From the IMG/VR virus record IMGVR_UViG_3300032053_000008: a stretch of 64,000 bases of DNA; one strand, 5' to 3'. The notes under the pieces were generated by a model that saw only the letters and a program-made list of their open reading frames with translations, ran no database searches and had not been told where the DNA came from. Positions 50,363-52,821 of this stretch are shown piece by piece. Position 1 is the first letter of the stretch; each line of letters starts with the position of its first letter. This DNA is from a virus. Position numbers and translations under genes: made by a program.

Positions 50363-51826
50363 ATGACTGAAATGACATATCGAGACCAAACCACCATTTA
50401 TCTCCCTGTAGATGATTCCAATCTTACTAAGGTTAAAACTTTTTTGTCTTACAAAGACGAATCAATAGCTTACCTGATAAAGCAAACCCAAAAAAATGGT
50501 TACAAATGGAGACAAGATCCACAAAAAACCGCACTTAAGATCACGGAATTAAAGGAACAACTTACTAAATCTCTTTTGTATATGGACGACAAAGGTTACT
50601 ACACACTTAAGGGATTGGTCTGTGATCTAGAAAAGCAATTTAATTGGGCAAAACCTTCTTTTACAAAATCTGATTTCAAACGCATCCCACTTAAGCACAA
50701 ACCATTTGATATGCGTCCATACCAAAAAGATGCATTAAATGCGTTACTTAAGTATGAACATGCCAGTATTGAAATTCCGACAGGCGGCGGTAAGAGCCTG
50801 ATTATATTAAATTTATTGATTAATCAACCTGTAAAAACTTTGATCATGGCTCCTTTGTCTGAAGTAGCTGACCAGCTCTACAAACAACTTTTGCAAACTT
50901 TTGGTCCCCAGTATGTCGGTAAGTACTCGTCTACATCAAAAAGCAAGACTAAGCTCTTTACCGTAGCCACCACTCAGGCTCTTACCCGTATCGACCAAGA
51001 CCATCCTGCTTGGGATTTGTTGTCTGATGCTGAACAAATTATATTTGACGAAAGTCATTCTTGTCCCGCCGCCACTTTCCAATCTATCTGCCTTGAGGGT
51101 GTGGGTGCCAAAGCTACGTACCGATATTTTGTATCAGCTACTCAAATGAGGTCTGATGGTAAGGACTTGCTCCTGGGTGGCATAATAGGCCCTACAGTCT
51201 ATCGGACATTTATGCAAGACTTAGTCAGCCAAGGCTACTTAAAATCGATTCAAGCGGCCTTTTTGCGCGTTCCAGGGGTATCTAGTGCTAGTAGCGAACC
51301 TAAGGAAGAAACTAGACGCAACTTGTACGAGAACCCACACGTCTACAAAATGGTTTCGGACATGGTAAGCAAGATCTATGCCCAAACTGACTTACAGGTC
51401 TTGATCCTCATAGAGGAGTATAGTCAATTCGTCCTATTAAAAAATTACTTGACAAATCCTTTCGAGTTTGCTCATGGCACAATCAGCAGTGATGCCAAAA
51501 ATACGGTGCCACAGGAATACTGGAAGTGTGACTTGGCAGCAATAGTGGAAAAATTTAATCGACTTCAAACAAGAGTACTTATTGGCACATCAGCTGTGTC
51601 AACAGGTGTTGACATTCAACCTACCGGTGTGATATTCTACATTCAAGGCGGCAAGAGTGAGATTAAAGTTAAGCAAAGTATTGGTAGAGGTACACGTCCA
51701 GTTGGTCCTAAAGTGTTGAAAGTGTTTGATTTTATTGTATCTGGTAGCCCCACCTTAGAACGTCATGCAGCCTATCGAAAAGAAATCTATGAGTCCATCA
51801 CGGAGATTCCCGTAAAGGTTTATTAA
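50363..51826 (+). CDS. SF2 DNA helicase (UvsW-like)
   Basis: RPYQ, PTGGGKS, DESH, SAT, TGVDI, QSIGRGTR; AGGAGG RBS. Confidence 0.9.
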   Translation: MTEMTYRDQTTIYLPVDDSNLTKVKTFLSYKDESIAYLIKQTQKNGYKWRQDPQKTALKITELKEQLTKSLLYMDDKGYYTLKGLVCDLEKQFNWAKPSFTKSDFKRIPLKHKPFDMRPYQKDALNALLKYEHASIEIPTGGGKSLIILNLLINQPVKTLIMAPLSEVADQLYKQLLQTFGPQYVGKYSSTSKSKTKLFTVATTQALTRIDQDHPAWDLLSDAEQIIFDESHSCPAATFQSICLEGVGAKATYRYFVSATQMRSDGKDLLLGGIIGPTVYRTFMQDLVSQGYLKSIQAAFLRVPGVSSASSEPKEETRRNLYENPHVYKMVSDMVSKIYAQTDLQVLILIEEYSQFVLLKNYLTNPFEFAHGTISSDAKNTVPQEYWKCDLAAIVEKFNRLQTRVLIGTSAVSTGVDIQPTGVIFYIQGGKSEIKVKQSIGRGTRPVGPKVLKVFDFIVSGSPTLERHAAYRKEIYESITEIPVKVY

Positions 51827-52821
51827 TGAGTGAACATTTCAAAGATTTCGTAGCTTTTTGTAATAAAGAAGCTAAACGAATAGCTAAGGCTGATCCGAGG
51901 GACCAGGAAAAGCTATTAACTGATCTGTTCGTACTAGAAGATGAGTTTCGCAGAATAATTGCTACCAAGAAATGGGAAAACATCATATACCCAGCTTTTG
52001 TTGACTATATAGTTAATACAAAAGGAAACGTTCTAGCCGCTAGAGTGTATTTTCGGGAAAGACAAAGCACTTTTAGTGCTGAAATGAGTAAACTTTTTAA
52101 AAATAACCAGCTTTATACTGTACTTGGCAACTACAAAATCAATTATGAGTTTATTAACTGGGTATGTAAAAACTTCCCTTATTCAAAAGACAAGCCTAAG
52201 TACAAGAAATTACACGAAATTAAAGATGAAGTAGTTAAGATCAGGCAGATTTTGTCGATGAAAGATGTTTTTCTGGCTCTAAACCGCGCCAGACTCTTTT
52301 GGAACAAGTCCACTAATTGCAAACTGGACTACATGGACATCGTCCAGGATGCCTGCGAAGGCTACCTTAATGCAGTGGACAAGTTTACCCCTCCCTATAC
52401 GACTACCTTTAGGGCTGTGGCTATTGGCCGGATGCTCCTTAAGATGCTTACCGACAACAATGCCCCAATGGTTCGACTACCACCTACTGACCAAAGGGTT
52501 TTATATCGAATCAATAATGCCAAGTATAGAGAAGGTCTTAGTTCAAATGAAGAGGTATTGGAGTTTGTTAAAGAAAGTTTTCCTAACGTATCTATGGACA
52601 GACTTTTAGCTATCGAGGCTTCTACTGAGATCTTTTACCCATTTGGTGGGGTAGGGGATGATGGAAAAGGTAAATGGAATGATGATAGCGAATTTGGTAA
52701 CCCTGAAGAAAGACTTATTGAAGCTGACCTTAAGTATCGGGTATCTTTGGTTTTTTCTACATTAACACCTTTTCAACAAAAACTTATTAAATTAAAATTT
52801 GGAGACAAAAAATGGAGTTAA
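51826..52821 (+). CDS. Sigma-70-family RNA polymerase sigma factor lacking region 4.2
   Basis: Region 2 (MDIVQDACEGYLNAVDKF...F..VA...VRLP) and region 4.1 (LTPFQQKLIKLKFG), then a stop five codons later. Confidence 0.8.
   Translation: MSEHFKDFVAFCNKEAKRIAKADPRDQEKLLTDLFVLEDEFRRIIATKKWENIIYPAFVDYIVNTKGNVLAARVYFRERQSTFSAEMSKLFKNNQLYTVLGNYKINYEFINWVCKNFPYSKDKPKYKKLHEIKDEVVKIRQILSMKDVFLALNRARLFWNKSTNCKLDYMDIVQDACEGYLNAVDKFTPPYTTTFRAVAIGRMLLKMLTDNNAPMVRLPPTDQRVLYRINNAKYREGLSSNEEVLEFVKESFPNVSMDRLLAIEASTEIFYPFGGVGDDGKGKWNDDSEFGNPEERLIEADLKYRVSLVFSTLTPFQQKLIKLKFGDKKWS

Follow-up and report, generated by a model that had tools for sequence, protein, structure and literature searches.

Late promoters of phage T4 consist of a single -10-like element, TATAAATA. 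Transcription from them is described as depending on gp55 together with the co-activator gp33 and the sliding clamp gp45, and gp55 as comprising only a sigma region 2 homology domain and a helix-loop-helix (PMC7892883). Initiation at an extended -10 promoter has been reported for an engineered sigma70 without region 4.2 (Kumar et al. 1993, cited in PMC7948647), with deletion borders given at residues 528 and 553 (PMC7948647). The phiEco32 protein gp36 is reported to read middle and late promoters mainly through one box near -11.5 (AATGTA); it is stabilised by gp79, and its sigma4-like C-terminal domain attaches to the flap-tip helix and reaches the -35 region (PMC12276001). Here we describe a sigma-70-family gene (51826..52821, + strand; 331 amino acids [aa]) that naturally lacks region 4.2, found in a large uncultured phage, the viral record IMGVR_UViG_3300032053_000008 of IMG/VR; positions refer to a 64,000-nucleotide (nt) stretch of this 137-kb genome, called the window. 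Judging from its sequence and from that of its relatives, the protein probably serves the host core RNA polymerase as a late sigma factor that recognises one element of the -10 type, analogous to gp55 and separately derived.

A sigma factor ending before region 4.2

Single-sequence searches matched the 331-aa protein to sigma models only weakly. The E value for Pfam Sigma70_r2 was 2e-3, below the cut-off, and that for phrog_351 ("RNA polymerase sigma factor") was 6e-6; TIGR02937 (E 3e-9) was covered over model positions 17-132 of 165, with 133-165 unmatched, and the RpoD_Cterm match covered positions 19-191 of 238. The doubt was removed by a profile built from an alignment of 18 sigma homologues, which matched RpoD chains in the PDB with a best E value of 6e-12 and paired residues from about 118 (or 129) to 326 with Escherichia coli sigma70 370-567; Sigma70_r2 was matched by 13 of the 18 family members, also below the Pfam cut-off. 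The profile alignment to RpoD begins at region 2.1 and stops where region 4.1 ends, at RMRFGIDM, and a phmmer search with the single protein gave the same end point. The HMMER alignments were unbroken through sigma70 451-550, which takes in the sigma3 domain and the 3.2 linker. An AlphaFold2 (AF2) model was all-helical, with a predicted local distance difference test score (pLDDT) of 78. Its Foldseek and VIA matches were sigma chains throughout, all strong fold matches being sigma only, and VIA-align superposed residues 1-270 on sigma70 94-504 with a Z score of about 12. These sequence comparisons establish homology to RpoD-type sigmas across sigma2, sigma3, and region 4.1, as a preliminary description of this DNA had read from an alignment by eye. 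Of the domains that it had proposed to scan for (Sigma70_r2, r3, and r4), r2 was matched weakly, and no Sigma70_r4 match was obtained in six frames of the 137-kb genome.

Residues 1-123 (51826..52194, +) comprise an N-terminal helix, which in the VIA alignment superposes on sigma70 from residue 94 (region 1.2), and a family-specific helical insert that carries, by the alignment columns, an invariant R-x-Y-F-R-E-R-Q at residues 73-80. A reading by eye of this motif (RVYFRERQ) as region 1.2 (RMYMREMG) was not supported; the structural alignment places region 1.2 at the first helix. The HMMER alignments assign residues 124-211 (52195..52458, +) to sigma2, regions 2.1-2.4, with model helices at 124-146, 148-161, 169-186, and 194-211. 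Residues 217-267 (52474..52626, +) were assigned to sigma3, regions 3.0-3.1, by the HMMER and family alignments, with model helices at 220-235, 241-249, and 257-267; R217-L218-P219 align with sigma70 R451-I452-P453 and the nearly invariant R224 aligns with E458. A variable linker with gappy alignment columns (residues 268-292; 52627..52701, +) occupies the position of region 3.2, and the pLDDT is below 50 for residues 268-295. According to the alignments and the AF2 model, residues 293-326 (52702..52803, +) form two helices that are the counterparts of the first two sigma4 helices (region 4.1), and this stub ends in L-T-P-F-Q-Q-K-L-I-K-L-K-F-G, with L313, K319, and G326 invariant. It is followed by a five-residue tail, DKKWS, and a TAA stop codon (52804..52821, +), placed where the region 4.2 helix-turn-helix would begin. 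The complete C terminus is ...LTPFQQKLIKLKFGDKKWS*, and the stop comes five residues past the equivalent of the RFG glycine, which in other sigmas stands ahead of the 4.2 helix-turn-helix. The translation of the open reading frame (ORF) and both HMMER alignments agree on this end, which the preliminary description had also recognised. By sequence, the protein is without the region 4.2 helix-turn-helix, and only the two 4.1 helices of sigma4 are kept.

The core-binding region 2.2 is well conserved, with D171, Q174, G179, D185, and K186 invariant among the 18 homologues and D171/Q174 aligned by HMMER with sigma70 D403/Q406. For the aromatic sigma70 residues that melt the -10 element, HMMER pairs Y191 with Y425, F195 with Y430, and V198-A199 with W433-W434; it further pairs R202 with Q437 and L205 with T440 of sigma70. 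Residues F195, V198, G201, R202, R224, Y227, and R228, all aligned to DNA-reading positions, are invariant or nearly so. The tryptophan dyad of region 2.3 had previously been said to appear as GR, a reading that is off by three residues because an ungapped register was used: both HMMER alignments insert a three-residue gap in the loop before region 2.3, whereas the ungapped register would pair F195 with sigma70 F427 and G201-R202 with the dyad. In either register, W433-W434 are absent from the protein.

The truncation is natural and family-wide. All 18 aligned homologues end at the same point, four of them with about 15 extra residues; the closest homologues have 61-64% identity. In 64 ORFs parsed from 80 IMG/VR loci, the end falls 0-20 residues past L..E.K.L.LKG, and among 139 members with a simple end motif, 136 stop 1-21 residues after the last glycine. 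An exhaustive profile search returned 325 cluster representatives at E<=1e-30 (clusters at 50% identity; a lower bound), nearly all of 315-370 aa and matched to the last positions of the profile. About 14 of the best 150 homologues are 570-820 aa long owing to an intein in region 2.4, not to a longer C terminus. The intein (Intein_splicing/Hint) interrupts the -10-reading helix of that region near profile position 207 in P0021 and about 13 others, and the IMG/VR loci with an intein-bearing sigma are L007-L009, L016, and L018-L020. The four homologues with extra C-terminal residues (P0005, P0007, P0008, and P0011; ..TKDD.LCQIL.KK) resemble the first helix of the lost helix-turn-helix in this extension, which may be a remnant of region 4.2.

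Apart from the short C terminus itself, nothing suggests that a full-length sigma gene has been shortened by a frameshift or a sequencing error, or is decaying into a pseudogene, and we regard the probability of such an artefact as negligible. Hundreds of independent homologues share the end point, which refutes an artefact by the test that the preliminary description had named. Nor would a frameshift or a readthrough lead into a region 4.2: what the two remaining downstream frames encode is a hydrophobic protein and a K/R-rich overlap, neither with a helix-turn-helix; the six frames contain no region 4 match, and the 4.1 motif is conserved. In keeping with what had been noted before, the downstream ORF overlaps the sigma stop by 10 nt and has its own ribosome-binding site, GGAG 8 nt before its ATG.

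A cultured member of the family could be identified. WNM70309.1 of the Myxococcus phage Mx1 (OR576727.2), annotated as "putative RNA polymerase sigma factor," is truly homologous, with 28% identity across 90% of the length (E 6e-29), the same end point, and the same helicase-sigma synteny. This annotation was made by similarity only, and the Mx1 genome announcement (PMC10720576) is silent on the sigma and on promoters. We found no paper describing a phage sigma family without region 4, nor one on Mx1 transcription.

The TAATCTT box in this phage and its relatives

The heptamer TAATCTT had been put forward as the likely target of the protein, and this proposal is supported by position-aware enrichment and by co-occurrence, whereas the bare count in the window is at chance (16 versus 15.5 expected), so that the signal is visible only when position is considered. 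Non-coding DNA makes up 4.5% of the genome and holds 10 of its 35 copies (binomial P 2e-6), each of them in sense orientation to the downstream gene and 9 of them within 54 nt of its start codon. TAATCTT is also the most enriched upstream 7-mer (8 versus 0.46 expected; the 8 copies are sense and 19-59 nt before start codons) and the top de novo upstream motif of the genome.

In the window, boxes on the minus strand precede several gene units. TAATCTT is found at 27420..27426, 27 nt before ORF 26409..27392, which heads the unit of the portal gene (24303..26405), and at 30091..30097, 73 nt before ORF 29322..30017, which heads the unit of the large terminase gene (27437..29329). Further copies are at 4945..4951, 23 nt before ORF 4526..4921, and at 15555..15561, 18 nt before ORF 15066..15536. 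A variant box, CCCTAATATT, lies at 10066..10071, 39 nt before ORF 9430..10026, and CTTAATCTTATCC lies at 63027..63033, 45 nt before the tail-fibre/baseplate-like ORF 62523..62981. Several boxes follow terminator-like hairpins. Genes headed by boxes outside the window had no PHROG annotation. The TAATCTT box at 12064-12070 (-), which comes directly after a terminator-like hairpin, points antisense into a (+) dCMP-deaminase gene pair (11385..11991); it could cause antisense transcription late in infection or provide ORF 10795..11238 with a long leader.

To compare relatives, ten sigma-carrying genomes (this phage, G000; eight related genomes fetched whole; and Mx1) were analysed by blind k-mer enrichment in sense upstream zones, and variants of TAATCTT were the top or near-top upstream motif in all nine others. 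The enriched form was CCTAATCT in G003 (22 versus 0.5 expected), CTTAATCT in G002 (15 versus 0.34), and CCTAATAT in both G001 (8 versus 0.33) and G005 (17 versus 0.52). CAATCTT was enriched in G006 (as ACAATCTT; 9 versus 0.65), in G007 (as GCAATCTT or ACAATCTT; 12 versus 1.37), in G009 (12 versus 1.25), and in Mx1 (7 versus 0.8), and AATCTTG was enriched in G008 (as CAATCTTG and TAATCTTG; 9 versus 0.58). The degenerate word YAATMTT was enriched 4-9 fold in all 10 genomes, with P values from 3e-4 to 1e-11. The genomes span 34-55% G+C and have both the truncated sigma and the box in common.

Pooling of 90 sites gave the consensus aaAnC(C/T)TAAT(C/A)TT(A/T)t, with median distances to the start codon of 21-39 nt and no information at the position of a -35 hexamer. 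What is found is thus a single conserved box, upstream of genes and in sense orientation, with no -35 conservation, as expected of a single-element promoter class. In Mx1, the boxes (CAATCTT/CCTAATCT) sit in the short gaps of the tail-sheath module, and the -12 base is mostly C, in contrast to the T of this phage. Residue 205, which aligns with the -12-reading T440 of sigma70, is L or A in genomes with T at -12 and G in those with C or a mixture there, a covariation that is only a lead because it follows a single phylogenetic split. A mirrored extended -10 contact, in which R224 would read C at -14, was not supported: R224 is invariant, and -14 is C in 6 of the 10 genomes.

The k-mer comparison also returned other upstream words. 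A longer element, (AGAG)TAAATAACTAA, occurs about 20 times in G009, the record of L083 (21 versus 1.3 expected), and GGTATAAT was enriched in G003 (11 versus 0.3), TATGGTAT in G005, and CTTGACA in G008 and Mx1; these four words probably represent early or middle promoter classes of those phages. In G008, the record of L069, the near-palindromic (A)AGATCTAC / TAGATCT was enriched upstream (8 versus 0.45), and a similar word, GGATCTG/AGATCC, was enriched in Mx1.

Neighbouring genes and the search for a partner

The sigma gene lies directly behind a superfamily 2 (SF2) helicase gene (50363..51826, +; ResIII/DEAD/Helicase_C; phrog_16 E 3.7e-46), whose stop codon overlaps the sigma ATG by one base (TAATG). 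The helicase is a conserved neighbour of the sigma gene: a helicase-sized ORF also precedes sigma in Mx1 and in most of the related loci. The 136-nt gap before this operon (50227-50362) has no late box; it contains TTGACC-N17-TAAGGT, a possible host-type promoter, and a consensus scan lists ATGATA-16-TATGAT there instead. Downstream, the overlapping ORF 52812..53345 (+; 177 aa) has a hydrophobic N-terminal segment and, by domain searches, no helix-turn-helix. It differs from the conserved downstream neighbour of the relatives, a protein of about 100 aa encoded directly behind sigma in 54 of 64 related loci. That neighbour is GroES-like (Cpn20 E 0.035; AF2 pLDDT 80; top fold matches all Cpn10/GroES/T4 gp31) and was therefore rejected as a sigma partner; in this phage its homologue, a 100-aa GroES-like co-chaperonin recognised by a weak Cpn20 match and by fold, is encoded about 20 kb away (31291..31593, -) between a DnaB-like helicase and an SbcD-like nuclease. 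A GroEL-like gene is present at 47356..49152 (-).

Searches for the missing sigma4 parts and for accessory proteins gave little. The six-frame search of the 137-kb genome yielded only one sigma2 match, and Sigma70_r4_2 gave a single weak match (E 0.055) at window position 2090-2161 (-). The matched stretch is the N terminus of a 283-aa protein in the structural region (ORF 1337..2188), which shows no sigma domain. A 64-aa ORF at 41120..41314, considered as a detached region 4, had no sigma or helix-turn-helix match. Phage sliding clamp or beta-clamp domains were not found in the genome, which is 84% complete. No phage RNA polymerase was found either, in a search that is uninformative because its PF00940 control matched nowhere.

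Proposed function and alternative explanations

We suggest that the phage sigma would bind the host core RNA polymerase and direct it to one-element phage promoters of the form aaAnC(C/T)TAAT(C/A)TT, represented in this phage by cTTAATCTTAt about 20-60 nt upstream of the virion and packaging gene units. Sigma2 would read TAATCT as the -10 hexamer, placing A at -11 and T at -7, and sigma3 together with the bases just upstream of the hexamer would supply the binding energy otherwise contributed by the -35 element, as at extended -10 promoters. The protein would be made early or in mid-infection and would then turn on the late genes, since its own gene sits in a box-free operon of helicase and nucleotide metabolism functions. 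The two-helix 4.1 stub could possibly anchor near the beta-flap and the RNA exit channel.

The proposed role resembles that of T4 gp55, in that a phage sigma-family protein without a -35 reader would redirect the host core to late promoters with a single -10-like element. However, the sigma described here keeps sigma3, the 3.2 linker, the two 4.1 helices, and an N-terminal 1.2-like helix, and neither a gp33-like partner, by the Sigma70_r4 search, nor a phage clamp was found in this genome. The best matches are RpoD/SigA chains and phrog_351, which is not a gp55 family, and gp55 was absent from the profile matches listed for the PDB (best 60 of 66), from Foldseek, and from the VIA re-alignment of the Foldseek matches, none of these searches being dedicated to gp55. 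For this reason, the separate derivation proposed earlier fits, and the family-wide truncation and the box enrichment without a -35 element support the earlier reading as a -10-only late sigma. Like engineered sigma70 delta-4.2, the protein has sigma2 and sigma3 and no 4.2 helix-turn-helix, and its natural end, at about sigma70 564-567, is close to the reported border of the engineered deletion (PMC7948647); it differs in belonging to a natural family under selection and in having the tryptophan dyad replaced. As at extended -10 promoters, bases adjoining the -10 hexamer on its upstream side are conserved and a -35 element is lacking, although these bases are C(C/T) or A-rich here and not TG. 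The AATGTA box of phiEco32 gp36 resembles AATCTT, but the present sigma has no sigma4-like domain, and no gp79-like partner is known.

Several observations weigh against the function proposed. The W433/W434 residues of sigma70, which are important for -10 opening, correspond to V198/A199, and the link between sigma and box is one of co-occurrence only. The change at residue 205 is the only residue-to-base covariation; it reflects a single split in the phylogeny and is indistinct in two genomes. Most genes downstream of the boxes are unannotated, so that a few units and Mx1 carry the assignment as late. Furthermore, a holoenzyme whose sigma lacks domain 4 is reported to be poor at de novo initiation and to show early pausing (PMC7948647), and a lone truncated sigma may for that reason need help.

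This last point leads to the alternative of a two-part factor, in which a phage or host protein, with or without DNA contact, would take the place of sigma4 on the beta-flap, or a detached helix-turn-helix would complete a split sigma. We consider it rather unlikely. A hidden helper is conceivable given the poor initiation reported for engineered sigma without domain 4 (PMC7948647), the described dependence of gp55 on gp33 and the gp45 clamp for full activity (PMC7892883), and the number of unannotated genes in this clade, among which a partner could be hidden. However, the genome has no Sigma70_r4 match and only the weak r4_2 match, the 64-aa ORF and the GroES-like neighbour offer no candidate, a phage clamp was not found in the 84% of the genome covered, and the box has no second conserved element that a DNA-binding partner could read. 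The opposite suggestion, which we put forward tentatively, is a natural -35-independent sigma family that needs no gp33-like helper, with the 4.1 pair serving as a flap or exit-channel anchor and a rewired -10-reading helix, in which V-A replaces W-W, opening YAATCTT. As engineered delta-4.2 proteins are reported to initiate poorly (PMC7948647), a natural family presumably compensates somehow.

It is also improbable, to a greater degree, that the box signals RNA processing, or is read by a host sigma or by some other DNA- or RNA-binding factor of the phage, while the truncated sigma serves other promoters or none. The correlative nature of the sigma-box link leaves room for this, TAATCT retains the T-A...T skeleton of a housekeeping -10 element, and the genome also has sigma-28-type promoters (TAAAGTTT-N11-CCGATAA). 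Yet the box is kept in phages of 34-55% G+C whose hosts, including Myxococcus, are probably different, which points to a conserved phage-encoded reader, and the truncated sigma is the only sigma-like gene found in the genome. A sigma without 4.2 could not recognise the strong -35 half of the sigma-28-type promoters, and among the listed top upstream words the halves of these promoters appear only in G000 (TAAAGTTT) and G001 (CCGATAA), whereas sigma and the AATCTT box occur together in 10 of 10 genomes. Still less credible is a decoy that keeps core binding, has lost promoter opening, and shuts off the host by competing with its sigmas. The loss of the W433/W434 equivalents and of region 4.2 would suit such a protein, as would the conserved region 2.2 with its five invariant residues, but a mere decoy would not need the invariant or nearly invariant residues at the DNA-reading positions (F195 to R228), nor would it be accompanied by a dedicated promoter-like box in every one of the 10 genomes. 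As a separate observation, near-consensus sigma-28/FliA-type promoters (CTAAAGTTT-N11-CCGATAA) lie upstream of small non-structural genes at 47071-47098 and 63310-63340 in the window; CCGATAA is also enriched in G001 and not in the other eight genomes.

A late sigma of this kind would be directly testable, with Mx1 in culture and its host, Myxococcus xanthus, genetically tractable. Its promoter code would allow the prediction of late genes across a large and almost unannotated group of phages of 110-180 kb. If the family does function without a gp33-like helper, it would represent a third independently evolved -10-only design, beside T4 gp55/gp33/gp45 and engineered sigma70 delta-4.2. Overall, this would be a natural and widespread sigma (at least 325 clusters at 50% identity) in which sigma2, sigma3, and region 4.1 are retained without a -35 reader and which is accompanied by a conserved promoter code of simple form; given the poor initiation by engineered truncations, it is relevant to the question of which share of sigma4 initiation really needs.

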